Assembly (NCBI RefSeq): GCF_000025925.1
Contig: NC_014033.1
Location: 1,260,001-1,292,000, forward strand
Direction: 5' to 3'
From: Xylanibacter ruminicola 23
Lineage (GTDB): Bacteria > Bacteroidota > Bacteroidia > Bacteroidales > Bacteroidaceae
DNA length: 32,000 bases
The notes under the pieces were generated by a model, which did no database searches, was not told the DNA's origin, and saw only the letters and a list, made by a program, of their open reading frames with translations. Of the stretch, positions 5,637 through 21,088 are shown piece by piece. The first letter of the stretch is position 1. Every line of letters begins with the position of its first letter. The position numbers were made by a program, and so were the translations under genes.

Positions 5637-6543
5637 TAAGACTACTTGCTAACACGATAACAACCATGATGATTTCAGCTGTGCGATTTACTCGTACAGC
5701 TGTTTTCATATCTGCTGTAGTCAACTCGCGATCGTTATCACCAATATAAGGTTTATCGAATACTTCGCCGAAATACTTATGTGGTCCACCAAACCTGCAA
5801 TTCAGAATGCTGGCTAATGCAGCCTCAGGATAACCGCTATTTGGTGAAGCATGACAGCAACCGTATTTGCGCACGAAACCAAGGCACTTTGGGCACCAAA
5901 TAACCATCAGTAACGCAGTTAAGCGCGCGGGGATGTAGTTGGCTACATCATCGATACGGGCAGCCCAGCAGCCAAACTGCAGGTAGCGTTCGGTATGGTA
6001 GCCAATCATCGAGTCGAGTGTGTTCACCATCTTATAAGCCAGCATACCAGGTGTGCCCAGCAACATCAACCAGAACAGCGGCGCTATTACTCCATCACTC
6101 AGGTTCTCGGCCAGCGTCTCGAGTGCTGCCGTACGTACCTCTTGTGCCGACAGCTCCGAGGTGTCGCGACCCACAATACGGGCCACCTGCGCCCTACCCT
6201 CGTCTAACGATCTGTCTAAGGCCAGAAACACCTGTCGCACCTCACGGATAAGTGTCGTTCCCGCCAAGCAGTAAAACACAGCGATGGCGTCGAACGCCAA
6301 TAACAAATAAACGTTAACCAATAAACAGCACTTACGGATAAACCACGTAGTAGCAAATATCGCAACGATGAATCCAATAGCCATCAAAGCACCTTTTAGT
6401 TTGCGATGGTTACCATGATTCAGATGCCGTTCGCCAAAGGCAATCATTCGTCCGAACCACACGATGGGATGCGGCAACTTCACTGGGTCGCCGAATATCA
6501 AATCGAGTAGCCAACCTATCAATAATGCTATCGGATTAATCAT
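5623..6543 (-). CDS. cbiB: Adenosylcobinamide-phosphate synthase (CobD/CbiB family membrane protein)
   Basis: 306-aa hydrophobic ORF with a CbiB-type N-terminus (LLDLIFGDPVKLPHPIVWFG) and ENLSDGVIAPLFW. It overlaps the cobQ stop by 8 nt. Confidence 0.9.
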   Translation of the reverse strand: MINPIALLIGWLLDLIFGDPVKLPHPIVWFGRMIAFGERHLNHGNHRKLKGALMAIGFIVAIFATTWFIRKCCLLVNVYLLLAFDAIAVFYCLAGTTLIREVRQVFLALDRSLDEGRAQVARIVGRDTSELSAQEVRTAALETLAENLSDGVIAPLFWLMLLGTPGMLAYKMVNTLDSMIGYHTERYLQFGCWAARIDDVANYIPARLTALLMVIWCPKCLGFVRKYGCCHASPNSGYPEAALASILNCRFGGPHKYFGEVFDKPYIGDNDRELTTADMKTAVRVNRTAEIIMVVIVLASSLISLL

Positions 6544-7957
6544 GACTCATTATCTCATAAATACGCTGTATATCAACATGCTGGCGCACGTGGGCTGCCA
6601 ACTTATTATACTGCTCGTTCTTAAAAGAATCGGCATCCTGCGCTGTGAAAGTCTGCTTAGTACCCAACAGATAGTCGATAACCGACTGATTGTCGAGGAA
6701 ACCGTGAATATATGTACCAATACAATGATCCGTCTGCATGATCATCTCATCGGTATCACTCACGCCCTGATGAATCTCGTAACCCTGACAGGTCTGACCA
6801 TTAAACTGGAAACTCACCTGACGGGTGGTCTTCTCTGCGCTCATGGTGGTGTGGATGGGCAGCAGTCCAAGACCAGGCAGACTGGCTATCGAACCTTCCA
6901 CACCATCAGGATCATCCACCGAAAGTCCCAGCATCTGATAACCACCACAGATACCTATCACCATCTTACCATCGCGATGGGCGCGCATGATAGTCTGTGC
7001 ACAACCGTTCCGACGCAACTCCAACAGGTCGTCGAGGGTTGATTTCGTGCCAGGCAGGATGATGAAATCAGCCTGCTCCAGATCCGAGATATTATTGGTA
7101 TAAAACAGGTTCACACGCGGATGACGCTCCAGGGTGTCGAAATCGGTATAATTGGAGATATGTCGCAACAGCACCACTGCCACGTTCACCTTACCAGCTA
7201 TCAACTGCCGGCGCTTCTGCTCCAGCGCCACCGAATCCTCCTCGTCGATATAGATATCCTTATAGTATGGCACCACGCCTAACACAGGTACTCCACACAG
7301 ATCCTCGAGCATCCGTCGCCCCTCGTCGAAAAGACGCATATCACCACGAAACTTATTGATGATAATACCCTTGATGAGTTTTCTATCCTCAGGTGTCTGC
7401 AGTGCAATACTGCCATAGACCGATGCAAACACGCCACCTCTATCAATGTCACCCACCAGTATCACATCCGCCTGCGCATGGCGTGCCATCGGCAGATTCA
7501 CCAAGTCGGTTGCACGCAAATTGATTTCCGAGATACTGCCAGCGCCCTCCATCACGATGGGATTATAGCGAGCCGCCAAGCGATCGAAGGCTCCGCATAC
7601 TTCCTGTCGGTAATCGATATCGGAACAGCCCCGCCGCCAGTAGTCGTAGGCATGCTTGTTGCCCAATGGCTTGCCATGCAGCACCACTTGCGACGTATGG
7701 TCAGAACTGGGTTTAAGAAGTAGCGGATTCATATCCGTCTCACAAGGGATGCCAGCCGCCTCGGCCTGTACAGCCTGTGCACGTCCTATCTCGAAACCGT
7801 CGGGTGTGGCATAAGAGTTAAGCGCCATATTCTGTGCTTTAAAAGGCGCTGGCGCATATCCATCCTGACGGAAGATGCGACAGAAGGCTGCAGCTAGGAT
7901 GCTCTTACCCACATCACTGCCTGTACCAACGAACATCAGGGGGTGTAACTTCTTCAT
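6536..7957 (-). CDS. cobQ: Cobyric acid synthase
   Basis: 473-aa ORF. The N-terminal nucleotide-binding motif is FVGTGSDVGKS and PFKAQNMALNS follows. The C-terminal glutamine amidotransferase domain shows ICGGYQMLG ... YIHG. It overlaps the upstream gene by 4 nt. Confidence 0.92.
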   Translation of the reverse strand: MKKLHPLMFVGTGSDVGKSILAAAFCRIFRQDGYAPAPFKAQNMALNSYATPDGFEIGRAQAVQAEAAGIPCETDMNPLLLKPSSDHTSQVVLHGKPLGNKHAYDYWRRGCSDIDYRQEVCGAFDRLAARYNPIVMEGAGSISEINLRATDLVNLPMARHAQADVILVGDIDRGGVFASVYGSIALQTPEDRKLIKGIIINKFRGDMRLFDEGRRMLEDLCGVPVLGVVPYYKDIYIDEEDSVALEQKRRQLIAGKVNVAVVLLRHISNYTDFDTLERHPRVNLFYTNNISDLEQADFIILPGTKSTLDDLLELRRNGCAQTIMRAHRDGKMVIGICGGYQMLGLSVDDPDGVEGSIASLPGLGLLPIHTTMSAEKTTRQVSFQFNGQTCQGYEIHQGVSDTDEMIMQTDHCIGTYIHGFLDNQSVIDYLLGTKQTFTAQDADSFKNEQYNKLAAHVRQHVDIQRIYEIMSHD

Positions 7958-9354
7958 AAGTCGCGACCAGGTTTTAGTTGTGCAGCATCATCAAAAGTCA
8001 GAATCGCATTACAGAGTGTCGCAGCCAGATTGCTACCGCCTTTACGTCCTTCCACTATCAGTTTGGGAATATCGCGGAAAGGTTTCACCATGTGTTTCGA
8101 CTCGCACACATGCACAAACCCCACAGGTGCCGCGATGATACCGGCTGGATGCGCTTTGCCTTTGCGCACCAGTTCACACAGTTCCATAAGCGCTGTTGGT
8201 GCATTGCCAAAAGCAAACAGTGCATCAGGATGCTCCTCCACGGCCAGACGAATGCCAGCCTGCGTACGCGTGATACCCAAGTGCTCTGCCATCTCAGTAG
8301 CACGTGGGTCTGAGAGATAACATTTCACCTCAAGACCCAGTCGCTCTACCGCTCCCTTGCGGATACCACTGGTCACCATCGTCACATCGCTGATGATCGT
8401 CTTCAGTGTGCCATCCTTCACCTTCTGATAGAGCGTTTCTACAGCCCCTTCGTCAGAATACAGGATATTCTCCATATCAAAGTCGGCTGTAGTATGGATG
8501 GCATGCAGCAGTGCCCATTTATGGTCGAGCGGATAGTCCTGTCGTTTCAGTTCCTTTGCGATGGTGAGGAATGAGGTTATCATGATGTTCTGCCCCACTT
8601 TCTCGCCTTCAGCCACCACCTCACGGTAGTAACCGCGTGGCGTAATCAGGCGGCCGTCAGCTATATAGGACTGGGAATTACCGATGATGATGACGGTAAA
8701 CATATCCACATCCTCAGGGTCGAAAGCGCCGAGAGTCGTCAACTTCACCACCTCGTCGTCGCGACCCGCCTGGCGCACATAGCCCACAGGGGTTTCAGCC
8801 GAACGATGCTGCAGGAATATCTCTTGCAAGCGATACAGCTGCCAGTAGCGCCCATGCGATTTGGGATTATAGACCGCCGTCACAAAGTCACCCATCGCAG
8901 CCGCCACTATGCGACGTTCTATCACCTCCCAAGGCGTCATCAGGTCGCTCATCGAGATGATACACATATCATGCCCGATAGGCGCACCCAACAGTGAGGC
9001 AGCCTTCTGGAAGGCGGATATGCCCGGCAGCGACACGATTTCGATATCCGAGCCACGTTCGCGGCGCATCTCATAGATCAAGGGCGTCATACCGTAGATG
9101 CCGGCATCACCCGAAGAGATCACCACCACCGTCTTATCCTGTTCGGCCAGTTCAAAAGCCTGTGCAGCGCGCTGGCGTTCCTTCTTCATACCCGTGTCGA
9201 TACACTCACAGTCGGCCTTTACATAAGGCATGATAAACTGGAAGTAATACTGAAAGCCCACTATCACGTCGGCCTGTCGCACTGCCTCGAGCACTGCAGG
9301 TGTGATGTCCTGCTGCGAACCAGGACCAATGCCAGCTACGATAATCTTTCCCAT
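7954..9354 (-). CDS. cbiH: Fusion protein: cobalt-precorrin-3/precorrin-3B C17-methyltransferase (CbiH/CobJ, N-terminal) plus precorrin-8X methylmutase (CbiC/CobH, C-terminal)
   Basis: 466-aa ORF. The N-terminus has tetrapyrrole methylase motifs (IIVAGIGPGS, VVVISSGDAGIYGM). The C-terminal half has CbiC motifs (FAFGNAPTAL, AGIIAAPVGFV). Confidence 0.88.
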   Translation of the reverse strand: MGKIIVAGIGPGSQQDITPAVLEAVRQADVIVGFQYYFQFIMPYVKADCECIDTGMKKERQRAAQAFELAEQDKTVVVISSGDAGIYGMTPLIYEMRRERGSDIEIVSLPGISAFQKAASLLGAPIGHDMCIISMSDLMTPWEVIERRIVAAAMGDFVTAVYNPKSHGRYWQLYRLQEIFLQHRSAETPVGYVRQAGRDDEVVKLTTLGAFDPEDVDMFTVIIIGNSQSYIADGRLITPRGYYREVVAEGEKVGQNIMITSFLTIAKELKRQDYPLDHKWALLHAIHTTADFDMENILYSDEGAVETLYQKVKDGTLKTIISDVTMVTSGIRKGAVERLGLEVKCYLSDPRATEMAEHLGITRTQAGIRLAVEEHPDALFAFGNAPTALMELCELVRKGKAHPAGIIAAPVGFVHVCESKHMVKPFRDIPKLIVEGRKGGSNLAATLCNAILTFDDAAQLKPGRDL

Positions 9355-9360
9355 ATCCTC

Positions 9361-11424
9361 TTAGTTTTTGAATTTTACTTTCAGTCCTACCACCAGCATG
9401 CGTCCTGGTGTGTATAGCGCATACTTGCGCGTAGAAGAGTCTAAGCGACGGTCAACCTTATCGAAGATATTATCTACACCGATGCTAGGCTCCAGATAAG
9501 CCCACTTGGCCACATCAAAGGCATGCGTGGTATGCAGGTTCCACAAACCGAAACCAGGCGCATCTTCATAACTGCCCGTATAATAAGTCTTCGACTGCAA
9601 TCGTCCATTCAGGTTCACGGTGAGTGCATATTTGCCCCAGGCATGATGGTAGTTGGCTGCCACCGTAGCAGCGTGGCGCATACTGCGCTCCAGCACCGTC
9701 CACACCTCACCACTATGGGTGCGGGTATACGTATAAACATAGTTGACTGAGAGGTTGAAACCACTGAAGAGATTAGCCGACACATTCATCTGCACACCCT
9801 TCACGTCGCCTTTATCACTGTTCTGATACAGGGCGTAGCTCACCATCTTGTCGGCCTGGTCCTGTGTCATCTCCGGGAATTCTGTCATGAGCATCTGCCT
9901 ACTGGCATCATCCACATCCACATTCTGTTTCACCACCATATCGTTGATACGGTTCAGATAGCCCGTCACACTCACAGCCAGAGCCTGTGTACGATATTCA
10001 GCATTCAGTGCGAAGTAGTTGCTCTTCTCAGGCTTCAGGTCCTGATTGCCAAAGCTGATCTGTGCCTTACCACGATTCACTGAGAAATAGTGGTAGTAGA
10101 GTTCATCGAGCCCAGGTGCACGGAAACCGGCAGAGTAAGTAGCTCGGAATCTGAAGTTTCCCGGTGCATACATCAGTGTGGCTTTTGGTGTGAGATGCTG
10201 GTCAAACGTCTCATGATGCGTCAGTCGCAATCCCAGTGTCGCCGTCAGGTTCTTCAGCAGCGTCATCTCGTGCTGGGCATAGGCAGCGAGCGAATACACA
10301 TGACTGTCGATATTACCGCTGGTGGCATTGAGATACTCCTTGCGCCAGTCGGCACCGAAGATGGTGGTAGAGTGCGCTGTCAGTCCCAGGATGGCTTTCA
10401 ACTGTCCCTCCATCATGCGCTGCTTCTTCGACTGCACGTAGTCGCCAATGGCATTGGTCTTCGTGGCCACATCATACTCCTTGCCATAACGGAAACGGTC
10501 CACCACGAAATCGGCCTGAATCGAGTTCTTGGCCGTAAACTTATAGATTCCGCCCACGTTCCATCGCAGTCCTTTGTAGCGCATCTCGTAGTCGGTACCG
10601 CCAGTGATATCGCTGCGTGTTTCTGGGCGATCGGTTATCTTATATGAATAGTCTATACCCGCATTCAGCGCCAAATGCTTATTGGGGGTATAAGTAAATT
10701 TCTGTCCGATGATATCAGAGCGATAGCCGGTGAACAGCGGGGCTATCGACGCCTGAGTTTCTGTGTCGGAACCTTTCACCAGTTCCAGGTCGTTGTTACG
10801 ATAACTGTCGGCCCTATCATGCATGAACGAGGTGTAGGAACCGAAGCCATTCTTGAAGATGTCGAGACCAACCGACTCTGTGAGCACGCCATGCCCCGAC
10901 ACACGCGTGTCGCTGCTGACGCTCATCATATCCTGTGTAGGCTGATCGGTGATGATATTGATGACACCCGCGATGGCATCACTACCATAGAGTGACGAGG
11001 CAGCCCCATCAAGCACCTCGATACGTTTTACGCGCGACATGTTGATACGATTCAGATCCACATTGTTTGAGATGTCGCCCGATAGTTTCTGACCGTTTAT
11101 CAGAATCAGGATGTATTTATTGCCAAGTCCGTTCAGTCTGAGGAAGCTCCCCATGCTGCTGGGAGCCATCGATGCCTGCGGCATCATGCGTGTGAGTGCG
11201 CCGTCGAAGGTCGTGATACCTTGTTCACGCATCTCCTGACTGGAGAGCACTCTTACTGGTGTGGCTGTTGATTTCAGGCGCTGGTGATGACCAGAGCCAG
11301 TGACAACCACAGGATTTAGGTTATACGAACGACGGACAGCATTCGAGTCCGTCTTATGAATTTGTGAAAAGGCGGTACTCCCCGAAAGGAGTACCACCAG
11401 GAACGAGAAATATTTAATCCTCAT
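9361..11424 (-). CDS. TonB-dependent outer-membrane transporter (BtuB-size, second copy in the operon)
   Basis: 687-aa ORF with a signal peptide (MRIKYFSFLVVLLSGSTAFSQ). Plug-domain motifs are LNGLGNKYILILINGQKL and GAASSLYGSDAIAGVINIIT. The beta-barrel C-terminus ends ...LKVKFKN. Confidence 0.9.
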   Translation of the reverse strand: MRIKYFSFLVVLLSGSTAFSQIHKTDSNAVRRSYNLNPVVVTGSGHHQRLKSTATPVRVLSSQEMREQGITTFDGALTRMMPQASMAPSSMGSFLRLNGLGNKYILILINGQKLSGDISNNVDLNRINMSRVKRIEVLDGAASSLYGSDAIAGVINIITDQPTQDMMSVSSDTRVSGHGVLTESVGLDIFKNGFGSYTSFMHDRADSYRNNDLELVKGSDTETQASIAPLFTGYRSDIIGQKFTYTPNKHLALNAGIDYSYKITDRPETRSDITGGTDYEMRYKGLRWNVGGIYKFTAKNSIQADFVVDRFRYGKEYDVATKTNAIGDYVQSKKQRMMEGQLKAILGLTAHSTTIFGADWRKEYLNATSGNIDSHVYSLAAYAQHEMTLLKNLTATLGLRLTHHETFDQHLTPKATLMYAPGNFRFRATYSAGFRAPGLDELYYHYFSVNRGKAQISFGNQDLKPEKSNYFALNAEYRTQALAVSVTGYLNRINDMVVKQNVDVDDASRQMLMTEFPEMTQDQADKMVSYALYQNSDKGDVKGVQMNVSANLFSGFNLSVNYVYTYTRTHSGEVWTVLERSMRHAATVAANYHHAWGKYALTVNLNGRLQSKTYYTGSYEDAPGFGLWNLHTTHAFDVAKWAYLEPSIGVDNIFDKVDRRLDSSTRKYALYTPGRMLVVGLKVKFKN

Positions 11425-11443
11425 TTAACAAAACTAATCTTAA

Positions 11444-12604
11444 TTATTCGGCAGCTGTTGTAGGAGTCGAGAGGGCGTCGTCGGTGCCCAGCTTGGCGAT
11501 AGCCTCACGGGTGTGGTTCATCCACAACTTGCGCACGGCACTACGCTCAGCCAGTCCGGGGATATACTCCTCGCCGCTCTTATACTTCTTCCAGCAAGCC
11601 TCAGTGTAGTTGGTCTCATAGGCAGCAGTCTCAATGCCTGCAGCATTAAACATAGAGAACCAGCTTTCATCATCCTCATCATCAGCCATATCGTTGTGGG
11701 CGTGATCACCGGCGATACTCATCAGCACAAACAGCTGAGCCTTCTTGCTTGCATTCTCAGGATAAGATATGGTCTTGGTTACATCGCCAATCTGATAGTC
11801 GAATGTGCCACCAGCAATGTGGTTAAGAACATCCTCGGCATAAGTCTCGTCCATATCAACGGTACCTACATAGAAGTTAGGATTGATTTCGCGCAGATAC
11901 TCCTCGAGCTGCAGGTAGCGCACGTTACCACCATAGTAGTCGTAACCCTCTGGATTACCATGACCCATGAAAGCCACGATACCCTGAGCCACAGCGGCCT
12001 TCACGTCAGCCTCGTTGTTCAGTGTGGTAGCCAGTGTCTTGGCGTCGCTCTCCTCAGCCATCAGTGGGGTACCTACAACCACCTGGCGGTCCAGACTCTT
12101 CATGTAAGCATCAGTGAAGTCACCATTACGGTTGTTCATAAAGTCCTTCACATAGCTGTCGCGCACACGGCGATACTCTTCACCAGGGATTACCTGCAGC
12201 GACTGTACCACCACCTGCTTGTAACCAGCCAGACCGATAGCGGTGAGCCAGTGCTCGGGGTCGTAATAGTCCTTAGGTTCCACATTCTCACCCGCACGGG
12301 CATTGTTGATACAGATGGCCGAAGAGAATGAGAGATATACATCCCATCCACCGAACTGAGCCTTGTAGTCATCCACCACCTTATCAAAGGTGTCATAGGC
12401 CTGTTCCCAGGTAGAACCGAAGGCTACCAGCAGGATCACCTTGTCACTCTTCTTCTGTGCATTCACTGTCTGGTTCACAGCCTGCTGATACCTGTCATAG
12501 TTCGACTGTGTTGATTTGTTGTCATCATCGCTGTCGCAAGCTGTAAACAGTGCGCTGCCCACTACTGTCAGCATGGCCAGCATCAAAAACTTAATCTGTT
12601 TCAT
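11444..12604 (-). CDS. Lipoprotein homologue of sirohydrochlorin cobaltochelatase CbiK (class II chelatase fold), predicted exported and surface-exposed
   Basis: 386-aa ORF with a lipoprotein signal (MKQIKFLMLAMLTVVGSALFTA|C) followed by an acidic run (CDSDDDNK). CbiK-like blocks run the whole length: VILLVAFGST, VVVQSLQVIPGEEY, VAFMGHGNPEG, LMSIAGDHAHNDMADDEDDESWFSMFNAAGIE, IPGLAERSAVRKLW. Confidence 0.85.
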   Translation of the reverse strand: MKQIKFLMLAMLTVVGSALFTACDSDDDNKSTQSNYDRYQQAVNQTVNAQKKSDKVILLVAFGSTWEQAYDTFDKVVDDYKAQFGGWDVYLSFSSAICINNARAGENVEPKDYYDPEHWLTAIGLAGYKQVVVQSLQVIPGEEYRRVRDSYVKDFMNNRNGDFTDAYMKSLDRQVVVGTPLMAEESDAKTLATTLNNEADVKAAVAQGIVAFMGHGNPEGYDYYGGNVRYLQLEEYLREINPNFYVGTVDMDETYAEDVLNHIAGGTFDYQIGDVTKTISYPENASKKAQLFVLMSIAGDHAHNDMADDEDDESWFSMFNAAGIETAAYETNYTEACWKKYKSGEEYIPGLAERSAVRKLWMNHTREAIAKLGTDDALSTPTTAAE

Positions 12605-14705
12605 TGTTGTTGTAATTAAAATTAGACTTAAACTTATTTGATAGTTTCTTACCTTGATTGAATCTCAGCGTGAGCGAGGCATAGATAGTTCTGCCTGGCG
12701 AGGTGGTGCCCAAATGCAGTCCGTGAGGCGTGCGGTCCACGAAATCAAAGATGTTGTCGATACCGGCATCCACTTTCAGCAGTCGGCCTATCTGATGATT
12801 GGTTGAGAGTCGCCACAATTGATAACCCTTGCCGTCGCCGTCTATCTGATAGTAGCGCTTACTGCTCAAGCGTCCGTAGATACCCACGCCCAACTGGTAT
12901 TTCTTTGAGAACTGATGATTCCAGGTGGCATATACGTTAGCCTTGTGATGCGCCATACCGTCGATGGTCACCTTCTGCATCACGTCGTTCTCAGTGTCAT
13001 ACTGGTTGGCTTCGGTGTCCAGATAGCTGTAGCTACCACCAGCGGTGAAGTGCTTACCCTGATAGCGCACGGTGAAATCCACGCCATAGGTCTTGGCATC
13101 TTCCATATTCTGATATTGACGCACACGGATGGGGTCGTATTTCGTAATCAGTTCGCCCGGAGCCTGCTTGGTAGGTATGGTCACCAGCGTGATCATGCGG
13201 TCCACCTTATTAATATAAGGCGCCAAGGTCAGCGTCAGGTGCCCGATGGTATATTCCACGCTGGCACCGAAATAATTCGAGGTCTGTGCCTTCAGGTCTT
13301 CATTGCCCAGGTAGAGATACACACCATTCATATTCTTGATATACTGATAGTGCAACTCCTTAGGCGTAGGTGTCTTGTAACCCTGACTCCAGGTGGCTCG
13401 CAGTCGCAGGTCGCCCAACTTCAGCATGGCTGACAGTTTGGGTGTCAGTCGGGTGCCGAATCCCTCATTGCGGGTCAGTCGCAAACCGCCTGTGATGTGG
13501 AGTGGATCCAGCAGTGCCCACTCGTCCTGCACATACAGTGCTTCGGTATTGTCAGTCGCTTTTCCGCCAGCCACACGCATCGGCGCTTTCAACCAGTCGT
13601 AGCGATACTCCAGTCCGGCACTCAACTGCTGCTCATAGGGCAACGCAAAGATTCCTTTCAGCGAGATGTTAGTCAGTCGCTGGTCGCTCTGCAGTTCCTT
13701 ATCACCGGGGAAGTAAGGGAAATAATTGGTAAAACGGCCGTTCACATAGCCATCCGTCAGCGTGGTGTCGGTATAGGCGTAGTTATAGGCATGCTTCTTC
13801 CAGTCGGCATCCAGCGTAATCACGTCGGTCTTGTTCAGCTTCCACTTACCACCTACTGACGCCGACGCATTGTTGTACTGCAGATCCCATGTCTTCACGT
13901 CCACACCGGGATGATGACCGCAGGGGCGATAGATGCGCTTCCAGTAGATGCTACCGTCGGCATAGAGTTCGATGGCAGGCGTGAGCTGATAAGTCAGTCG
14001 CTCAGCTATCTGCCAGTTGGTATGCCGGTTCACCGTCTTGTTGCGCGAGTCGGTGATGTGGTATTCCGTTTGTTGGATAGCTTCCTCGGCGGTGTTCTGC
14101 CAACCGTCGGAGTGCTGCAATTGGAAGTTGGTGTAGCTCGACAGTTTACCATAGTTGAGCGCCACGCCGTTATGCTGCCTGATGTCGCCATAAGTGCCTA
14201 CGCGCGTGGTGTTCTCCACCATCACGCCCTGTTCGCGATGCTTGCGGGTGATGATATTGATCACACCAGCTATCGCATCACTGCCATAGAGGGCACTCGA
14301 GGCACCCTTCACGATTTCTATCTTCTCGATATTATGCGGGTCGATAAGACTCAGGTCGTTCTCGCCACCATTATCACCATGCAGGCGCCTACCGTCTATC
14401 AGTATCAGCACATACGCGTTGCCCAGACCATTCATCTGCAGTCTGCTACTCATATCGTTCTCGCTGAAATCGAACGATGCCGTGAGTCCCGACAGGATAT
14501 CCTCGATACTCTTGCCGGCATACTGCTGCAACTGCCGGCGACTGATTACTTCGGTCTGCACGGGCGCATCTTTCAGCAGGTGCTGCGTACCAGTACCTGT
14601 CACCACCACCTCCTGCAAACTATCAGCACGCCAAATGTCGGTCTGGGCATTTGCACCAATAGCAAGCAAACTCAGGCCTATTGCCAATTGCTTCCCTAGT
14701 TTCAT
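12591..14705 (-). CDS. TonB-dependent outer-membrane transporter (BtuB-like, first gene after the B12 riboswitch)
   Basis: I place the start at the ATG at 14705 (MKLGKQLAIGLSLLAIGANAQ signal peptide). The track's TTG start at 14768 would lie immediately adjacent to the riboswitch. Plug motifs are MNGLGNAYVLILIDGRRL and GASSALYGSDAIAGVINIIT. The barrel strand ...IYASLTLRF is followed by a 22-aa tail. Confidence 0.9.
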   Translation of the reverse strand: MKLGKQLAIGLSLLAIGANAQTDIWRADSLQEVVVTGTGTQHLLKDAPVQTEVISRRQLQQYAGKSIEDILSGLTASFDFSENDMSSRLQMNGLGNAYVLILIDGRRLHGDNGGENDLSLIDPHNIEKIEIVKGASSALYGSDAIAGVINIITRKHREQGVMVENTTRVGTYGDIRQHNGVALNYGKLSSYTNFQLQHSDGWQNTAEEAIQQTEYHITDSRNKTVNRHTNWQIAERLTYQLTPAIELYADGSIYWKRIYRPCGHHPGVDVKTWDLQYNNASASVGGKWKLNKTDVITLDADWKKHAYNYAYTDTTLTDGYVNGRFTNYFPYFPGDKELQSDQRLTNISLKGIFALPYEQQLSAGLEYRYDWLKAPMRVAGGKATDNTEALYVQDEWALLDPLHITGGLRLTRNEGFGTRLTPKLSAMLKLGDLRLRATWSQGYKTPTPKELHYQYIKNMNGVYLYLGNEDLKAQTSNYFGASVEYTIGHLTLTLAPYINKVDRMITLVTIPTKQAPGELITKYDPIRVRQYQNMEDAKTYGVDFTVRYQGKHFTAGGSYSYLDTEANQYDTENDVMQKVTIDGMAHHKANVYATWNHQFSKKYQLGVGIYGRLSSKRYYQIDGDGKGYQLWRLSTNHQIGRLLKVDAGIDNIFDFVDRTPHGLHLGTTSPGRTIYASLTLRFNQGKKLSNKFKSNFNYNNNETD

Positions 14706-14770
14706 TACTATCAAATTATCACAACCGCTAACTCCTGAACGGTCTAAAGTTAAATTGTCAATCTTCAATT

Positions 14771-14945
14771 GACATTCGGCAGGTCTTCTGACTTTCCTCA
14801 GTCTGTCTTACCTTCCCGAGCCTGTGGCTCAGTGGCGTTATACAGGCAAACCCTTTTTGCGAGGATTACAGCTGCAGGTACAGTTACGGATTCTCACCGT
14901 ATTCCCTTTTCATCGTAGTGGCATCGGCCACCAGATGACCTTATT
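14771..14945 (-). promoter_or_regulatory. Cobalamin (B12) riboswitch
   Basis: The reverse complement reads ...GGUGGCCGAUGCCACUACGAUGAAAAGGGAAUACGGUGAGAAUCCGUAACUGUACCUGCAGCUGUAAUCC...CGCCACUGAGCCACAGGCUCGGGAAGGUAAGACAGACUGAGGAAAGUCAGAAGACCUGCCGAAUGUC. It contains the conserved GGGAA..GGUG..AAUCC core, GCCACUG, GGGAAGG and the B12 box AGUCAGAAGACCUGCC. It sits directly upstream of a TonB-dependent transporter. Confidence 0.92.
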
Positions 14946-14952
14946 TTGGCGA

Positions 14953-14960: not shown

Positions 14961-15002
14961 CAACTTTTTTCGGTTAACCACACATATTTAGCAGAAAATT
15001 TA

Positions 15003-15010
15003 TATATTTG
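15003..15010 (+). promoter_or_regulatory. Candidate -7 promoter box (TATATTTG) for the cbiA operon
   Basis: Matches TAnnTTTG, 22 nt upstream of the ATG at 15032. It is divergent from the riboswitch promoter 43 nt away. Confidence 0.5.
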
Positions 15011-15031
15011 CACCCAAATCAACTTCAGAAG

Positions 15032-16309
15032 ATGTCGAACAAGACAGCGTTTATGATAGCAGCACCCACCAGTGGTTCAGGCAAGACAACCATTGCCCGA
15101 GGCCTGATGCAGTGGTTCACCCAGAACGGTTACCGGGTGCAGCCCTTCAAGTGCGGGCCCGATTATATCGACACTAAATTCCACACAGCTGTCTGTGGGC
15201 ACCCGTCGGTCAATCTCGATACCTTTATGACTACGCCCGCACACGTACGCGCGCTATTTGCGCACTACGGGACTGATGCTGACATCTGTATCGTCGAAGG
15301 TATGATGGGCCTTTATGATGGCTACGATCGCGAACTGGGTTCGTCGTACGACATCGCCCGCGTGCTTGATATTCCCGTGATTCTGGTGGTCGATGCTAAA
15401 TCGGCAGCCTACTCGATGACAGCCCTCTTATCGGGCTTTATCCACTTCCGCGGCGACGTTCGTATCGCTGGTATAATATTTAACAAAGTTGGTTCGCAGC
15501 GCCACTTCAACATGCTGCGCGAAGTGTGCGATGAGCTCCATGTCAAGTGCCTGGGCTACCTGCCTAAATCGCCCGACCTGGAGCAAAATTCACGCTATCT
15601 GGGGCTCGATTTCTCACAACTACCCGAGTCAGACCAGTTGACTGCCCTTTTAGAGGAGAATATCGACCTCCCATCTCTCAAAAGTCTCACTACCACGCTC
15701 CATGACGAGGTAAAGTCCCAAACAAGAAACTGCGAGTTCCGGCATCTGGAAACGAAAACGCTTATAGCCAGGAATCATGAAAGTTTTTCGTTCATCTATC
15801 AGGAGACTTTAGACCAGTTTGGCGACGTCATTTTCTTCGATCCTGAGAAAGATGTGCCAACTTTTGATGGCATCGACCTGCTCTATCTGCCAGGCGGTTA
15901 TCCTGAGAAGCACCTGGAGGCATTAGTGCCCAATCAGGCTTGTCTGCATGCTATCAAAAAATTTGCGGAAGATGGCGGCAGGATTGTTGCCGAATGTGGC
16001 GGTATGATGTACCTCTGTCAAGCCATCATTACCGACGATGGAAGTTTCCCCATGTGCGGTGTACTGCCCTACTCGATCACTGCCCGCAAAGCTGATCGCA
16101 AGCTGTCCTTAGGCTACCGCCAGTTCACCCTCGATGGCAAGACCTATCGAGGGCACGAATTCCATTACACGCAATTCATCGGCGATACCCCTGAGAGTAT
16201 CACCCAAGTCTATAACGCTAAAGGTGAGCCTGTACCAACGCCAATTTTCAGATATCACAACGTACTAGCCAGCTACACGCACCTTTATCAAATACCCAGC
16301 ATCCTATGA
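15032..16309 (+). CDS. cbiA: Cobyrinate a,c-diamide synthase
   Basis: I place the start at the ATG at 15032 (MSNKTAFMIAAPTSGSGKTT); the track's TTG start at 15008 overlaps the promoter box. It shows PFKCGPDYID and a C-terminal GATase domain (ECGGMMYL ... GHEFHY). The stop overlaps the next ATG (ATGA). Confidence 0.92.
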   Translation: MSNKTAFMIAAPTSGSGKTTIARGLMQWFTQNGYRVQPFKCGPDYIDTKFHTAVCGHPSVNLDTFMTTPAHVRALFAHYGTDADICIVEGMMGLYDGYDRELGSSYDIARVLDIPVILVVDAKSAAYSMTALLSGFIHFRGDVRIAGIIFNKVGSQRHFNMLREVCDELHVKCLGYLPKSPDLEQNSRYLGLDFSQLPESDQLTALLEENIDLPSLKSLTTTLHDEVKSQTRNCEFRHLETKTLIARNHESFSFIYQETLDQFGDVIFFDPEKDVPTFDGIDLLYLPGGYPEKHLEALVPNQACLHAIKKFAEDGGRIVAECGGMMYLCQAIITDDGSFPMCGVLPYSITARKADRKLSLGYRQFTLDGKTYRGHEFHYTQFIGDTPESITQVYNAKGEPVPTPIFRYHNVLASYTHLYQIPSIL

Positions 16310-17559
16310 AATTCATCGTCATCGGTATCACAGACAACCCCAACCCCTATTTTCCCCCTGAGGTGATGGCCATCATACGCGATGGAAAGGTGTTTTCTGG
16401 CGGCAAGCGCCACCATGAGATTGTAGCCCCGCTGCTGCCTGCAGATGCCGAATGGATAGACATCACTGTACCGCTCGATGCCGTATTTGATAAGTACTCT
16501 CAACATGCATCACTCCACTCGACCTTTGGTCGCTCGCAAAGCGAGAACACTAGAAACTCAACAGAAATCATCGTCTTTGCTTCTGGGGATCCGCTGTTCT
16601 TTGGGTTTGCGAATACGATTCGTAGGAAGATTCCAGATGCTGAAATCATCGTCTATCCTACCTTCAACTCGCTGCAGTTGCTGGCCCACCGATTGGTGAT
16701 GCCCTATCACGACATGCGTATCGTGTCGCTCACAGGGCGCCCCTGGGCAGAATTCGACAGAGCACTCATCGAGCGCGCACCGAAGATAGGTATTCTAACC
16801 GACCGTGAACATACACCTGCCACGATAGCCCAGCGCATGACCGACTACGGATATACCGATTTCATCATGCACGTGGGCGAGAAATTAGGCAATCCATCGG
16901 AAGAGCACCTTTCTACGCTTTCGCCGAAAGAGGCAATCCATCGTGATTTTGCCATGCCTAATTGCATCATCCTGGAACACCGTGGCGCAGTGCCACCACG
17001 ACCATTCGGCATTCCCGATGCAGCCTTCACACTCCTCGACGGGCGCGAAAAGATGATCACCAAGATGCCCATCCGCTTGTTGACGCTGCAGGCCCTCCAG
17101 TTGACCGGTCGCCATGTGCTCTGGGATATCGGCTTCTGCACAGGTAGCGTCAGCATCGAGGCGCGCCTGCAGTTCCCACACCTGCAAATAGAGGCTTTCG
17201 AGATTCGTCCTGAGTGCGAATCCATCATCCAGCAGAACACTCGGAAGTTTGGCGCGCCAGGCATCCATACCCATATAGGCGACTTCCTAAAGACAGACGT
17301 ATCAGGCCTGCCCCAACCTGATGCTGTATTCATAGGCGGTCATGGAGGAAAACTTAAAGAAATCATAGCTAAGTTGCTGACAGTCATATCAGATAACGGC
17401 ATCATTGTATTCAATAGCGTCACCTCACCGAAGGTCACCACCGACAGTCATCAGCTTTGGGATGAAGCCTGTGCCGAACTCGGTTTGCAGCAATTCCCAC
17501 CCCAACACATACAATTAAATGATTATAACCCCATAGAGATATTATCATGCAAAAAATAG
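16306..17559 (+). CDS. cbiET: Fusion protein: precorrin-6Y/cobalt-precorrin-7 C5-methyltransferase (CbiE) plus cobalt-precorrin-6B C15-methyltransferase, decarboxylating (CbiT); CobL-like
   Basis: 417-aa ORF. The N-terminal methylase shows VFASGDPLFFG. The C-terminal Rossmann methyltransferase shows LWDIGFCTGSVSIEA and FIGGHGG. It carries the 39-nt in-frame repeat module at 16513-16551. Confidence 0.88.
   Translation: MKFIVIGITDNPNPYFPPEVMAIIRDGKVFSGGKRHHEIVAPLLPADAEWIDITVPLDAVFDKYSQHASLHSTFGRSQSENTRNSTEIIVFASGDPLFFGFANTIRRKIPDAEIIVYPTFNSLQLLAHRLVMPYHDMRIVSLTGRPWAEFDRALIERAPKIGILTDREHTPATIAQRMTDYGYTDFIMHVGEKLGNPSEEHLSTLSPKEAIHRDFAMPNCIILEHRGAVPPRPFGIPDAAFTLLDGREKMITKMPIRLLTLQALQLTGRHVLWDIGFCTGSVSIEARLQFPHLQIEAFEIRPECESIIQQNTRKFGAPGIHTHIGDFLKTDVSGLPQPDAVFIGGHGGKLKEIIAKLLTVISDNGIIVFNSVTSPKVTTDSHQLWDEACAELGLQQFPPQHIQLNDYNPIEILSCKK
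16513..16551 (+). repeat. 39-nt hairpin-containing repeat module, copy A, in frame inside cbiET (encodes LHSTFGRSQSENT)
   Basis: ctccactcgacctttggtcgctcgcaaagcgagaacact is 34/39 identical to 25192-25230 and is read in the same frame. The core hairpin is CTCGC-AAA-GCGAG. Confidence 0.8.
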
Positions 17560-19322
17560 CCATCATACAGATTAGCGATGCTGGCAGCGAAATCGCCAGT
17601 CAGTTGCAGTGCGAACTCGGTGCCGAACTCATCCAACGAACCGATGTTGGTAACCAATGGGCAGCCTATGATGCCTTCGTTTTCATCGGTGCCATGGGCA
17701 TCTGCGTGCGCACCATCGCCCCTTACATCGAAGACAAGCATACCGACCCGGCCGTGGTCTGCATCGACAGTTTTGGGCTCAACGTCATCTCCGTTCTCTC
17801 CGGCCATATCGGTGGCGCCAACGACTTGACACGCCACATTGCCGCCCATCTTGGTGCGCACGAAGTGATCACCACCCAGAGCGACAATGCCGGACTGTGG
17901 GCACTCGACACGTTGGACAAGCAGTTCAACTGGAATATGGTGGGGTTTGACGATATCAACGCGTGCATCAGCGCTTTCGTGAATCGCGAGCCCACTGCAC
18001 TGCTCATGGATATCCGCGACGCAGGTACCGACTTTCTGGAGCGCACCCTGCCCGACCATGTCACCATCGTCAACAGCATAGATGAGGTTACCCCCAAAAG
18101 ATTCAGACTGCTTATCCAGGTGACGCCCTACATCATCGACACCCCACCAGGCGTACTCAAGGTGTGCTATGTGCCAAAGGTAGGCGTACTGGGATTTGGT
18201 CTGGCTAGTCATCCAGCCAACTACGAGCACATCCTTGAAGAAATCGACGAGGCCATCACTGACAACGATATCATGCCTTGCTACAAGCGCTTCTGCACCA
18301 TCGATGTGAAGCGGGATGAGGAGTTCTGCGCCAAACTCCAAAAAGAAACAAATAGCGAGGTGGTATATTACACCGGCGAGGAGTTGGCCAAAGTAGAAGT
18401 ACCCAATCCCAGCGAAACCGTAGAGAAACATGTGGGCACGCCCTCAGTCTGCGAGGCAGCGGCTATTCTCGGTTCCAACCACGGCAAACTGATTCTTCCT
18501 AAGATAAAAGGTAAGAACTGGACGGCGGCCTTGGCCATCGACCACAAATACCTGCGCGAGCAGAAAGGACACATAGAGATTGTAGGCGCAGGCCCTGGCG
18601 ATCCCGATTTGGTAAGTGTACGAGGACGCAAGATGCTCGAAAGGGCTGATTTGATACTCTATGCAGGCTCACTTGTTCCAAAGGCTTTGACGGAGTGCCA
18701 CAAGCCAGGAGCAGTAGTTCGTTCGTCAGCTGATATGGCACTCGAGGAACAATGCGAGCTGATGAAGAAGTTCTATGACGAGGGCAAATTCATCGTGCGC
18801 CTCCATACAGGCGACCCATGTATCTTTGGCGCTATCCAGGAACAGATGGCCTTCTTCGATGCCAACCACATGGAATACCATATCACTCCAGGCATCAGCT
18901 CGTTTCTGGCGGCAGCAGCCGAACTGCAGAGTCAGTTCACGATTCCAGAGCGCTGTCAGACGATTATTCTGACCCGTGGCGAAGGACGCACACCCATGCC
19001 CGAGAAAGAACAGTTGCACCTGTTGGCCAAGAGTCAGAGCACGATGTGCATCTTCCTCTCAGCCAGTATCGTAGATGATGTGCAGCGCGAACTGCTGCAG
19101 GAGTACCCCGAGGATACGCCCGTAGCTGCCTGCTATCACCTTACCTGGCCCGACCAGAAGATCTATCGCGGAGTACTTAAAGATTTAGCTCAGATAGTTC
19201 ACGATAACCACTTGACGCTCACCACGATGCTCGTTGTTGGAGAGGCTATCGACAACCGTCAAGGACTGTCTGAACTCTATTCAAAAAACTTCACTCATCT
19301 ATTCCGAAAAGGCAAAGCATGA
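17547..19322 (+). CDS. cbiGF: Fusion protein: cobalt-precorrin-5A hydrolase (CbiG, N-terminal) plus cobalt-precorrin-4 C11-methyltransferase (CbiF/CobM, C-terminal)
   Basis: 591-aa ORF. The N-terminal roughly 330 aa are CbiG-like (FIGAMGICVRTIAP, VLSGHIGGAN, VCEAAAIL). From about residue 342 it has tetrapyrrole methylase motifs (IEIVGAGPGDPDLVSVRG, VRLHTGDPCIFGA). It overlaps cbiET by 13 nt. Confidence 0.88.
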   Translation: MQKIAIIQISDAGSEIASQLQCELGAELIQRTDVGNQWAAYDAFVFIGAMGICVRTIAPYIEDKHTDPAVVCIDSFGLNVISVLSGHIGGANDLTRHIAAHLGAHEVITTQSDNAGLWALDTLDKQFNWNMVGFDDINACISAFVNREPTALLMDIRDAGTDFLERTLPDHVTIVNSIDEVTPKRFRLLIQVTPYIIDTPPGVLKVCYVPKVGVLGFGLASHPANYEHILEEIDEAITDNDIMPCYKRFCTIDVKRDEEFCAKLQKETNSEVVYYTGEELAKVEVPNPSETVEKHVGTPSVCEAAAILGSNHGKLILPKIKGKNWTAALAIDHKYLREQKGHIEIVGAGPGDPDLVSVRGRKMLERADLILYAGSLVPKALTECHKPGAVVRSSADMALEEQCELMKKFYDEGKFIVRLHTGDPCIFGAIQEQMAFFDANHMEYHITPGISSFLAAAAELQSQFTIPERCQTIILTRGEGRTPMPEKEQLHLLAKSQSTMCIFLSASIVDDVQRELLQEYPEDTPVAACYHLTWPDQKIYRGVLKDLAQIVHDNHLTLTTMLVVGEAIDNRQGLSELYSKNFTHLFRKGKA

Positions 19323-21088
19323 TACTGGTATTTGGTGGAACAACAGAGGGACGCAAAGCCGTGGAGGTGTTGGAAGAAGGGGGTTCGCCCTACTTCTACA
19401 GCACAAAGACCGGCGAGCAGGACATCACGCTGCAGCATGGTGTGCGCATAGACGGCGCACTCGATGAGGCAGCAATGATGCACTTTTGCACCGAGCACGG
19501 CATCCGGATGATAGTGGATGCCGCCCACCCCTTTGCAGCACTGTTGCACCAGACCATTGCCAAGACTGCCAGCGCACTCTCGCTGCCCGTAGTACGCTTT
19601 GAACGCATCTACCCGCCATGCGACCCTGCCATCACCTGGATTGACGACTACACCCAGATACCACACGACATCCATAGCCTTCTCGCCACCACCGGCGTGC
19701 AGAGCATCAGCAAACTGAAACCGCTCGCGGCCGATGGAATCAGTATCTTTTATCGCATCCTCAACCGACCGTCGTCGATCGCCTTAGCTCTGAAACAAGG
19801 TGCCACCCAAGCGCAGCTATGCTATTACGACGACCCCAATGATATACCCGTTCAAGCAGACGCTATCTTATTGAAAGAAAGCGGTTTATCAGGCGGATTT
19901 ACAGAAAAGGTAGTAGCAGCCAAAGCCTGCGGCATGCGTGTGATAGCCATCAAGCGCCCAGAACAGCCCAAATCATTCATCGTGGTTGACGGTCCTTACG
20001 GGTTACGGAGAATGGTAGAGAAGCTACTGCCAGAGTTCTATCCCCTGCATAGCGGACTCACCACGGGCACCTGTGCCACAGCAGCAGCGGTGGCAGCCTG
20101 CATCCGACTGACTTCAGGCGAGATGCCTGCCGAAGTGCCTGTGATGCTGCCTAACGGCGAGACCATCCATGTAGCAGTGAGCTATGGCGACGACTATGTC
20201 GCCTGCATCAAAGAAGCCGGCGACGACCCGGATGTTACCAATGGCATCGAGGTCAGGGCCCAGGTCACCGAATCCGATCACTTTGAGATTCTTGGTGGCG
20301 AGGGTGTTGGCAGGTTTACGCTGCCTGGCTTCGATTATCCCCCAGGCGAGGCTGCCATCAACAAGGCACCACGGGAGATGATTCGCCAGAACTTAGAAAG
20401 ATTGAAGATGGAAGATGGAAGATTGAAGATTGTGATTAGTGTGCCGCAGGGGGCTGAGATTGCGCGCAGGACTTTTAATCCGCGATTGGGGATTGAAGGG
20501 GGCATCTCCATCATTGGTGTTTCGGGCATCGTAAAGCCGTTTAGCGAGGAGGCGTTTGTGGATAGTATCCGTAAGTGTATGACGGTGGCTAAGGCGTCTC
20601 AATCGGCAAGAGTGGTGATCAATAGCGGCGGAAAGAGTGAGCGGTTTGTGAAGGCCCTCTACCCCGAGCTGCCCCAACAGGCGTTTGTGGAGTATGGCAA
20701 CTATATTGGCGAGACGCTCAAGATAGCCCACGAACTGGATATACGCAGCATCACACTCGGCGTGATGATAGGCAAAGCTGTCAAACTGGCGGCTGGTCAT
20801 CTCGACACGCATAGCAAACGCGCCACCATGGATAAAGCGTTTATCAGTGAGATGCTGCACGAGGCCCATTGCGATATCGACATCAGCGATATCACCTTGG
20901 CACGCGAGATATGGGAGAGACTCTCCCCAGAACAACAACAGGATTTTGCCGACGTCATCATCAGCCATTGCGCCGCTTATTGTCAACCGCTACTGCCCAA
21001 TGGCGAGTTGACTATTCTTCTGATTGCCGACGACGGAACAATACTACCGCTATCACCGGCGCACCAACCAGTGCCGTCACGGAGTTAA
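19319..21088 (+). CDS. cbiJD: Fusion protein: cobalt-precorrin-6A reductase (CbiJ/CobK, N-terminal) plus cobalt-precorrin-5B C1-methyltransferase (CbiD, C-terminal)
   Basis: 589-aa ORF. The N-terminus MILVFGGTTEGR and DAAHPFA are CbiJ-like. From about residue 241 it is CbiD-like (GLTTGTCATAAAVAA, NPRLGIEGGISIIGVSGIVKPFS). ATGA overlap with cbiGF. The last 77 nt overlap the convergent permease gene. Confidence 0.88.
   Translation: MILVFGGTTEGRKAVEVLEEGGSPYFYSTKTGEQDITLQHGVRIDGALDEAAMMHFCTEHGIRMIVDAAHPFAALLHQTIAKTASALSLPVVRFERIYPPCDPAITWIDDYTQIPHDIHSLLATTGVQSISKLKPLAADGISIFYRILNRPSSIALALKQGATQAQLCYYDDPNDIPVQADAILLKESGLSGGFTEKVVAAKACGMRVIAIKRPEQPKSFIVVDGPYGLRRMVEKLLPEFYPLHSGLTTGTCATAAAVAACIRLTSGEMPAEVPVMLPNGETIHVAVSYGDDYVACIKEAGDDPDVTNGIEVRAQVTESDHFEILGGEGVGRFTLPGFDYPPGEAAINKAPREMIRQNLERLKMEDGRLKIVISVPQGAEIARRTFNPRLGIEGGISIIGVSGIVKPFSEEAFVDSIRKCMTVAKASQSARVVINSGGKSERFVKALYPELPQQAFVEYGNYIGETLKIAHELDIRSITLGVMIGKAVKLAAGHLDTHSKRATMDKAFISEMLHEAHCDIDISDITLAREIWERLSPEQQQDFADVIISHCAAYCQPLLPNGELTILLIADDGTILPLSPAHQPVPSRS

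Follow-up and report, generated by a model that had tools for sequence, protein, structure and literature searches.

A predicted surface lipoprotein of the CbiK chelatase family in a riboswitch-led corrin-ring operon of Xylanibacter ruminicola 23

Among the closest described relatives of the protein considered here is IhtB/FetB of Porphyromonas gingivalis, a haem-binding outer-membrane lipoprotein homologous to CbiK, for which the removal of iron from haem on behalf of IhtA has been proposed (PMC12094164, PMC10913741). The present case is a CbiK-family lipoprotein gene of Xylanibacter ruminicola 23 that lies between two TonB-dependent transporter (TBDT) genes in an operon led by a cobalamin riboswitch. 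The window, i.e., the whole stretch of DNA analysed, comprises 32,000 nucleotides (contig NC_014033.1, positions 1,260,001 to 1,292,000), and coordinates are given within it. In P. gingivalis, ihtB is PGN_0705, the next gene after PGN_0704 (PMC10913741). The latter, ihtA (named btuB), has a cobalamin riboswitch, and coenzyme B12 lowers both its transcript and its protein (PMC3422912). The iht operon shows no response to iron or haem starvation (PMC12094164). More recently (2026) a structure has been described of FetB, which came out as the top chelatase homologue in P. gingivalis W83; in vitro the protein inserts Co(II) and Mn(II) into a porphyrin analogue, neither inserts Fe or Ni nor dechelates haemin, and has a role in the formation of the manganese protoporphyrin IX (Mn-PPIX) pigment (PMC13065792). 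The organism has corrin-ring genes, and the steps to make precorrin-2 are missing (PMC6461909). For 25 years this homologue has been treated as a haem/iron protein.

A second exported relative is CbiK(P) of Desulfovibrio vulgaris (2xvx/2xvy/2xvz), which shares the fold, the histidine pair and the cobalt site with the window protein. In contrast to the window lipoprotein it is soluble and periplasmic with an ordinary signal peptide, it has no described TBDT partner, and D. vulgaris has a separate cytoplasmic CbiK too. Haem binding by CbiK(P) is mentioned in a passage of PMC13065792 citing Lobo 2008. In Desulfovibrio one B12 element controls cbiK-cbiL and the btuCDF B12 transport genes (PMC545781). 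Bacteroides BtuG, BtuH and BtuJ are analogous to the role proposed below in that they are TBDT-linked surface lipoproteins under a B12 riboswitch that pick up ligand for their barrel (PMC6143338, PMC10404256, PMC8941943), but they are unrelated to the window protein in sequence and fold; the 32-kb window has no BtuG-like gene, and no chelatase is mentioned in the papers on BtuG or BtuH. A chelatase-fold lipoprotein module would be a third kind of Bacteroidota surface B12-pathway protein, after BtuG and BtuH/BtuJ. No B12-uptake paper found in the literature search examines such a module, and besides the P. gingivalis work no paper found there links a cobaltochelatase lipoprotein to B12 uptake.

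The window protein would, with a probability of about 0.55, be a surface ligand-capture partner of TBDT1, the transporter encoded directly upstream, for cargo of the cobalt-tetrapyrrole or corrinoid type, repressed by B12 and serving cobamide supply. The lipid-anchored chelatase-fold protein would be exported, then displayed on the cell surface as a dedicated 'lid' or capture protein of TBDT1. A cobalt-tetrapyrrole-type ligand (candidates are a corrinoid, a corrin precursor, or a precursor plus Co2+) would be held in the preserved chelatase cleft and handed to the TBDT1 barrel for TonB-driven import. The second transporter (TBDT2) and a BtuFC-like ABC system may move related cargo onward, and adenosylcobalamin (AdoCbl) would repress the whole unit via the leader riboswitch. 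Since repression by AdoCbl is expected, its purpose should be the supply of cobamide and not nutrition with haem or iron. The parts of this scheme that we infer are exposure at the surface, a physical pairing with TBDT1, the cargo, and binding as opposed to cobalt insertion or removal. The initial annotation had suggested a chelatase-fold receptor, or even a (de)metallating enzyme, for corrinoids; its location signals, its fold and its riboswitch and TBDT associations have gained support, while the part on ligand and activity remains a proposal.

Pairing with TBDT1 is supported by a conserved gene order, by a 14-nt overlap of the two genes and by the presence of a TBDT1-like gene immediately upstream in 80 of 80 orthologous loci. 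By contrast, signal-less CbiKs, found in 15 other loci, have neither a TBDT nor a cobalamin riboswitch.

The likeness to P. gingivalis is close at the level of layout. As in the window, the gene of FetB (PG0669/PGN_0705) encodes a CbiK-fold lipoprotein and directly follows a TBDT gene, as seen in the FetB locus of our set (L084), and the cbl-1 riboswitch lies upstream of PGN_0704 just as an RF00174 element leads the window operon. The lipobox of FetB reads …AMLS, cleavage, C (representative P0197), that of the window protein …LFTA, cleavage, C. The differences lie in the proteins and in what follows them. FetB and the window protein are only 26-27% identical, the latter is about 95-100 residues longer, and its acidic run after the Cys is much stronger; downstream are TBDT2 and cbiHC-cobQ-cbiB in the window but the ihtCDE ABC transporter in P. 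gingivalis. In the best-supported view, the window module is of the IhtA/IhtB kind but would belong to another, much larger Bacteroidota clade; in the window it is embedded in a corrin-ring operon. By sequence the protein is a new, divergent member beside the known IhtB/FetB-type lipoproteins. The novelty implied by the initial annotation holds to that extent, while the arrangement of riboswitch, TBDT and CbiK lipoprotein is already that of PGN_0704/PGN_0705 (ihtA/ihtB).

Table 1. Coordinates of the features in the window, with the residues discussed in the text.
Feature	Position	Strand	Basis or remark
Cobalamin (AdoCbl) riboswitch aptamer, operon leader	14761..14950	-	RF00174, 93.7 bits vs gathering 31.5; model 1-189, full
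TBDT1, TonB-dependent outer-membrane transporter	12591..14705	-	Pfam Plug and TonB_dep_Rec_b-barrel
CbiK-family lipoprotein	11444..12604	-	start overlaps TBDT1 stop by 14 nt
Predicted lipoprotein signal peptide, residues 1-22 (MKQIKFLMLAMLTVVGSALFTA)	12539..12604	-	PROSITE PS51257 rule, read by hand; conserved in orthologues
Predicted lipidated Cys23 (TGC 12536-12538) and acidic run DSDDDN	12518..12538	-	predicted Bacteroidota-type export (surface) signal
His215 (FMGHG)	11960..11962	-	CbiK metal ligand His145; aligns in 2xvx, 9b86
Asp250 (GTVD)	11855..11857	-	position of catalytic Glu (GTVE) of CbiK, CbiK(P), FetB
His301 (AGDHAHNDMA)	11702..11704	-	CbiK metal ligand His207; aligns in 2xvx, 9b86, 1qgo
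TBDT2, second TonB-dependent transporter	9361..11424	-	Pfam; starts 19 nt past CbiK stop
cbiH-cbiC fusion	7954-9354	-	Pfam, NCBIfam; same transcription unit
cobQ/cbiP	6536-7957	-	Pfam, NCBIfam; same transcription unit
cbiB	5623-6543	-	Pfam, NCBIfam; same transcription unit
Corrin-ring genes cbiA, cbiE-cbiT, cbiG-cbiF, cbiJ-cbiD	15008..21088	+	Pfam, NCBIfam; divergent from operon
BtuF-like periplasmic binding protein and BtuC-like permease	21012..23131	-	Pfam Peripla_BP_2, FecCD

The features are collected in Table 1. The lipoprotein gene starts with ATG and encodes 386 amino acids, and all motifs quoted from it in the initial annotation (VILLVAFGST, VVVQSLQVIPGEEY, VAFMGHG, IAGDHAHNDMADDEDDESWFSMFNAAGIE and GLAERSAVRKLW) are found in the reading frame. 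Alignment with CbiK over the whole length, at first made by eye, is borne out by a near-complete match to the Pfam profile CbiK (PF06180), the only Pfam domain in the protein: residues 55-369 cover profile positions 1-261 of 262 with E = 8.2e-35 and 120.8 bits against a cut-off of 26.2. The NCBIfam equivalog of the biosynthetic enzyme (NF047852), in contrast, is matched with 91 bits, below its cut-off of 400. From these two profile results the protein is a member of the CbiK family, yet not a standard CbiK. The closest sequence matches in the PDB are 2xvx (D. vulgaris CbiK(P), 1.8e-22), 9b86 (P. gingivalis FetB, 8.5e-21) and 1qgo (Salmonella CbiK, 6.8e-14).

An AlphaFold2 model built from a 19-sequence alignment is confident (pLDDT 86.6, pTM 0.85) and has the two-domain alpha/beta chelatase fold. 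In a Foldseek search with this model, only class II chelatases rose above noise. FetB 9b86 is the best structural match, with a TM(target) of 0.90, followed by CbiK(P) 2xvx (0.86) and CbiK 1qgo (0.84), with E from 1e-18 to 5e-14, and then by SirB at about 0.7. The nearest solved relatives are thus FetB/IhtB and CbiK(P), both of which the initial annotation had named as exported CbiK relatives. Relative to CbiK, and also to FetB, the model has an N-terminal helix (35-50), an insertion (155-172), a beta-hairpin (266-281) and a disordered loop (330-345). Cytoplasmic CbiK, represented by Salmonella 1qgo and by the form in locus L112, shares PF06180, the fold, the histidine pair and the surrounding motifs; it differs in its length of 264-297 amino acids and in the lack of a signal peptide.

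Retention of both metal-site histidines had also been noted, and it is general. His215 and His301 are invariant in three alignments (A1, A2 and A4), in exported and cytoplasmic relatives alike, FetB included. Alignment A1 contains 23 sequences, namely the window protein, Bacteroidota homologues, FetB, a CbiK(P)-like protein and cytoplasmic CbiKs; in it F62-G63, S95, Q134, E143, N304 and D305 are further invariant or near-invariant flanking positions. The whole tetrapyrrole cleft is conserved, not just the metal site. A conservative replacement of Glu occurs at Asp250. The motif is GTVD in most of the large Bacteroidota clade, including cytoplasmic proteins of the L156/L112 type, whereas FetB, CbiK(P) and canonical cytoplasmic CbiKs have GTVE. 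The catalytic Glu of GTVE is presumably Glu175 of the Salmonella enzyme (SeCbiK).

The N-terminus of the window protein reads MKQIKFLMLAMLTVVGSALFTA, cleavage, then CDSDDDNK. Read by hand, the PS51257 features are present: a K within the first seven residues, uncharged positions -10 to -5, and L-F-T-A-C with the Cys at 23. A strict lipobox regular expression was run on 82 loci, i.e., the 80 orthologous loci and two others (L084 and L085). It was positive in 76, and the six misses are lipobox variants (e.g., FNAC, MSSC, VCFTAC) or frameshifted assemblies. At least two D/E occur at positions +2 to +7 in 75 of the 76 homologues with a lipobox so defined, and effectively all 80 orthologues have the signal peptide, the Cys and the acidic run, in keeping with the lipoprotein signal and acidic run first noted in the single sequence. 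In Bacteroidota an acidic run after the lipidated Cys directs surface exposure. Because of this run the window protein is most likely surface-displayed.

Genome pipelines label such proteins 'sirohydrochlorin cobaltochelatase', and pathway surveys count CbiK/CbiX as the cobalt chelatase step regardless of localisation (PMC6461909). It could therefore be asked whether the gene encodes an ordinary cytoplasmic CbiK with a 'signal peptide' produced by a wrong start codon. This is extremely unlikely. The signal is conserved at the protein level, as is the overlap of the start with the TBDT1 stop; the real cytoplasmic relatives have 297 amino acids and no hydrophobic N-terminus; and the NCBIfam equivalog score is far from its cut-off. 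The codons agree. M8 and M11 fall within the signal peptide, and no conserved ATG, GTG or TTG was found between Cys23 and strand 1 in the 80 orthologues. GTG occurs at V43 in 29/80 and at V47 in 25/80, both under the background, as 44% of all Val codons of these genes are GTG. A cytoplasmic isoform from an internal start was rejected on this ground and is unlikely, since no such start is conserved; the codon check is in line with the initial statement that no alternative start gives a cytoplasmic form. A caution follows for genome-based 'B12 producer' calls, which take the exported protein as the pathway chelatase.

On the minus strand the operon runs in the order riboswitch, TBDT1, CbiK lipoprotein, TBDT2, cbiH-cbiC, cobQ, cbiB, and the last three genes (5623..9354) are co-directional and abutting or overlapping. 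Pfam and RF00174 matches confirm what had been read from the letters, a CbiK homologue between two TBDTs under a B12 riboswitch. The likely start of TBDT1 is ATG 14705, about 55 nt past the aptamer, after which a typical signal peptide follows (MKLGKQLAIGLSLLAIGANA, cleavage before Q); the mechanically assigned start of the reading frame, TTG 14768, overlaps the riboswitch. No intrinsic terminator or terminator-like hairpin was found on the coding strand of the expression platform. TBDT2 is 29% identical to TBDT1 (BLASTP 3e-82). The best PDB sequence match of TBDT1 is CirA (1.5e-33), and E. coli BtuB is matched over the plug alone (about 2e-13). Clear BtuB orthology was considered for both transporters and rejected, since their best matches are CirA-like and the similarity to E. 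coli BtuB is at plug level only. Both have NCBIfam scores far under the cut-offs, and therefore no substrate can be read from the barrels.

Conservation was followed in 160 related loci, 80 of them orthologous (47-92% identity) and 80 from a metagenome scan seeded with distant members, with flanks limited to 6-10 kb. The orthologous loci are nearly all from rumen Prevotellaceae or Bacteroidales, and also include Phocaeicola abscessus, one Porphyromonadaceae metagenome-assembled genome (MAG) and Sodaliphilus; the best genome matches are to Xylanibacter (Prevotella) ruminicola, at 91-92% identity. An RF00174 element lies upstream on the same strand in 11 of the 11 loci scanned with Rfam. A covariance model made from the riboswitches of these loci found one in 77 of the 80 orthologous loci; in the remaining three (L071, L073 and L075) the sequence available upstream is shorter than 3 kb, which makes 77/77 assessable loci. 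In 47 of the 55 orthologous loci whose flanks are complete, the overlap is likewise 14 nt. A gene resembling TBDT2 occurs in 71/80, usually downstream and sometimes upstream of TBDT1, and cbiHC follows the module in 42/80; cbiHC-cbiET-cbiGF is a common arrangement after the module.

More distant relatives show the same association. A search of 1.84 billion cluster representatives gave 804 clusters with an E-value of 1e-3 or lower, 30 of which reached 1e-30 or lower. Among the retrieved full-length hits that align with the query end to end (33-55% identical), most start with a lipoprotein signal peptide. The distant full-length homologues are probably from Bacteroidota. The distant scan yielded about 65 exported-type and 15 cytoplasmic-type loci. 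A TBDT1-like gene is directly upstream in about 62/65 of the former, and a cobalamin riboswitch is present in about 51 of the 54 with enough flank, the exceptions being L086, L089 and L158. For all exported forms together, a TBDT1-like gene precedes the lipoprotein gene in about 142/145, and a riboswitch lies upstream in about 128 of the 131 with enough flank. Whether homologues always co-occur with RF00174 and a TBDT, a question posed by the initial annotation, can thus be answered with almost always.

Several points weigh against the reading of the protein as a capture partner of TBDT1. The CbiK cleft fits a flat, carboxylate-rich isobacteriochlorin, and it is doubtful that a whole cobamide, nucleotide loop included, could be accommodated. 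Beyond the plug, the two TBDTs are not near any characterised BtuB, CirA being the best PDB match. Co-transcription with ring genes could reflect merely one B12 regulon. The TBDT-lipoprotein pairs of L086 (3841-6996) and L089 have no riboswitch within 6 kb, and the residues after the Cys are basic (CKKQDPK). Finally, the locus sets are phylogenetically clustered (rumen Prevotellaceae MAGs, repeated human-gut contigs), and the counts overstate independence. The variant in L086 and L089 is possibly periplasm-facing or differently regulated.

The classical view of IhtB would make the window protein a surface 'reverse ferrochelatase' or haem binder that serves the neighbouring TBDT in haem or iron acquisition. 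This is very unlikely. Haem binding and the proposed iron removal by IhtB/FetB, the mention of haem binding by CbiK(P), and the top NCBIfam match of TBDT1, the TonB-hemin subfamily (158.9 bits, far under its cut-off of 316.85), are in its favour. It has to be set against these that assessable loci almost all have a cobalamin riboswitch and that the gene is embedded among cbi genes. The position of CbiK(P) His96 (PGEEFH; numbering counted on the PDB alignment) is Arg145 in the window protein (PGEEYR) and Asp in FetB. This His96 is reportedly the haem axial ligand of CbiK(P), as Romao et al. are said to have found in 2011. Haem ligation in the style of CbiK(P) was considered and rejected for the window protein, since the axial His is replaced by Arg; it is therefore not predicted. 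FetB itself neither dechelates haemin nor inserts Fe (PMC13065792), starvation for iron or haem does not induce the iht operon (PMC12094164), and a B. fragilis cbiK mutant has no haem-iron phenotype according to unpublished data cited in a passage of PMC6460266. By its regulation and gene context, the module is linked with cobamide supply instead of haem or iron.

A cytoplasmic sister form provides a useful comparison. In 15 loci (L105-L117, L121 and L156), probably a few species whose counts are inflated by relatedness, CbiK has 297 amino acids and no hydrophobic N-terminus. Its operon contains cbiK, cbiMN, cbiQO fused to a SirC-like domain, hemA, hemC and SUMT (e.g., L112:5754-12843). Homologues of HemA, HemC, SUMT and CbiMN occur in 14-15 of these 15 loci but in none of the approximately 145 exported-type loci. 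The partners of cytoplasmic cbiK in Bacteroidota are thus a cobalt ECF importer together with early tetrapyrrole genes, whereas the exported form is linked to TBDTs and a riboswitch. With the exported member L095 the cytoplasmic form shares 51% identity, with the window protein 30%; in a rough neighbour-joining tree without bootstrap it nests within the lipoprotein clade, with FetB and P0192 outside. From near-universal riboswitch control, corrin-ring linkage and a cytoplasmic sister with CbiMNQO, HemA and HemC, the context is argued to be cobamide supply. In place of a cobalamin riboswitch, the cytoplasmic cbiK operon has a Bacteroidetes FopS sRNA upstream (RF04319, 68-72 bits).

Within cobamide supply the exported protein might also work as an enzyme. 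As the pathway's sole cobaltochelatase it would insert Co2+ at the surface into a scavenged macrocycle of the sirohydrochlorin or precorrin-2 type, and the cobalt complex would be imported by a TBDT, then by the BtuFC-like ABC system, to feed CbiL/CbiH and the onward steps. This is considered unlikely. The window has the ring genes cbiH, G, F, D, J, E, T, C, A, P and B, and within its 32 kb no other chelatase, cbiL, SUMT, hemA-D or cobalt importer was found with Pfam and NCBIfam. The initial annotation had concluded that the cytoplasmic pathway in the window lacks a cobalt-insertion enzyme. The protein is indeed the only chelatase in the window, but the claim is valid for these 32 kb only; a cytoplasmic CbiK/CbiX, CbiL or SUMT may lie elsewhere in the genome, and related Bacteroidota carry a cytoplasmic CbiK paralogue elsewhere.

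The distribution of early genes between exported-type and cytoplasmic-type loci agrees with such an external chelatase, as do the invariant catalytic His pair and the 51% identity of an exported member to a CbiK whose context marks it as a chelatase. A CbiL-like gene (TIGR01467, 133 bits, under the cut-off but the best family) lies in 9-10 loci between the two TBDT genes and immediately precedes the TBDT1-lipoprotein pair; CbiL is absent from the window and from all 80 close orthologous loci. The cobalt chelatase activity of FetB in vitro (PMC13065792) and the inability of P. gingivalis to make precorrin-2 (PMC6461909) also fit. Free sirohydrochlorin or precorrin-2 in the rumen is, however, undocumented. 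Prevotella ruminicola was reportedly described by Caldwell et al. in 1965 as a haem auxotroph that uses uroporphyrinogen, not 5-aminolaevulinic acid (ALA) or porphobilinogen (PBG), which is counted in favour of an external chelatase. Were uroporphyrinogen salvaged, though, both the methylation and the chelation step would take place in the cytoplasm. Exported paralogues may also occur in species with a cytoplasmic CbiK operon, and these paralogues would then need another role.

Extended to rumen Prevotellaceae and P. gingivalis together, the idea would be that cobalt insertion in anaerobic B12 synthesis has been moved outside the cytoplasm and acts on a precursor obtained from neighbouring organisms, similar to sirohydrochlorin or precorrin-2. 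This, too, is considered unlikely. Surface CbiK would load cobalt, the partner TBDT would import the complex, and CbiL/CbiH and later enzymes would finish the corrin. The idea is kept alive because the catalytic site is strictly retained, because an exported member is close to a cobaltochelatase identified by operon context, and because a chelatase, a cobalt importer and early tetrapyrrole genes are absent around the exported forms; its low probability reflects the fact that absence of a chelatase rests on the 32-kb window, not the whole genome. If true, it would explain operons with ring enzymes yet without a cytoplasmic chelatase, cobalt importer or early haem genes, and would resolve an 'enigma' that has stood for 25 years, the corrin pathway of P. 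gingivalis.

The cargo could also be the metal. In a corrin producer of the cobalt-poor rumen, the surface protein would bind Co2+ or a small cobalt complex via the His pair and feed the TBDTs, in a B12-repressed uptake system. A CbiK(P) crystal has cobalt at the His site (PDB 2xvz), and the TBDTs are nearer to metal-chelate receptors such as CirA than to BtuB. B12-riboswitch TBDTs have been predicted to be cobalt-specific, none of them confirmed, and the BtuF-like CbtJKL system imports Co(II) (PMC7689651). CbiMNQO or another cobalt importer is absent from the window and from exported-type loci. Such scavenging is nevertheless quite unlikely. With two His and a carboxylate, the site is weak and unselective for the capture of an extracellular free ion, it is the whole tetrapyrrole cleft that is conserved and not the metal site alone, and the cytoplasmic chelation step would still be left without an enzyme. 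Four roles are then in contention, namely corrinoid capture, cobalt capture, precursor salvage and extracytoplasmic chelation. The question matters for the rumen, which Prevotellaceae dominate, since the B12 supply of ruminants depends on rumen cobalt and these microbes.

For the capture role proposed here, the BtuF-like and BtuC-like genes are a possible inner-membrane leg of the route, judged by family matches. The BtuC-like permease scores 200 bits with NCBIfam BtuC, under the cut-off, and no ATPase gene lies beside the pair. The two genes lie beyond the divergent cbi genes, some 8.4 kb away from the CbiK gene, and are followed by cobS-cobU-cobT. The 3' end of the permease gene overlaps the convergent 3' end of cbiJ-cbiD by 77 nt, and no riboswitch precedes the pair. 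Four fused corrin-ring pairs occur in 5623-21088 (cbiH-cbiC, cbiE-cbiT, cbiG-cbiF and cbiJ-cbiD). In close relatives (L001-L003) an extra gene of 170 amino acids with no recorded Pfam hit lies between cbiJD and cbiGF; it is absent from the window.

Several related loci have additional elements. The CbiL-like methyltransferase has 231 amino acids in L123-L129, L149 and L155 (e.g., L127:982-7032), where it is part of the same riboswitch-led operon. A second cobalamin riboswitch in L042 (66-2270, minus strand) is on the opposite strand and leads a further, unrelated TBDT beside the main module. Human-gut loci (L130-L157, e.g., L139:3597-13027) have two convergent riboswitch-TBDT-CbiK modules with no ring genes within 6 kb; one CbiK lipoprotein has the acidic run, and the second copy, of 309 amino acids (MYRGFLRSMFVCSLLLGLACSLWAKPG…), is without it. 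NrdD with its own preceding riboswitch follows, so that 13 kb contain 3-4 cobalamin riboswitches. CbiK paralogues of yet another, third type, with an ordinary non-lipoprotein signal peptide and an HFGTT motif, have been detected near the lipoprotein module in L018:2359-3282(-), L069:10612-11532 and L165:7250-8182 and at the 3' ends of L159, L161 and L164. This suggests that some species may have a surface and periplasm pair of chelatase-fold proteins. In L018 the paralogue adjoins cbiA.

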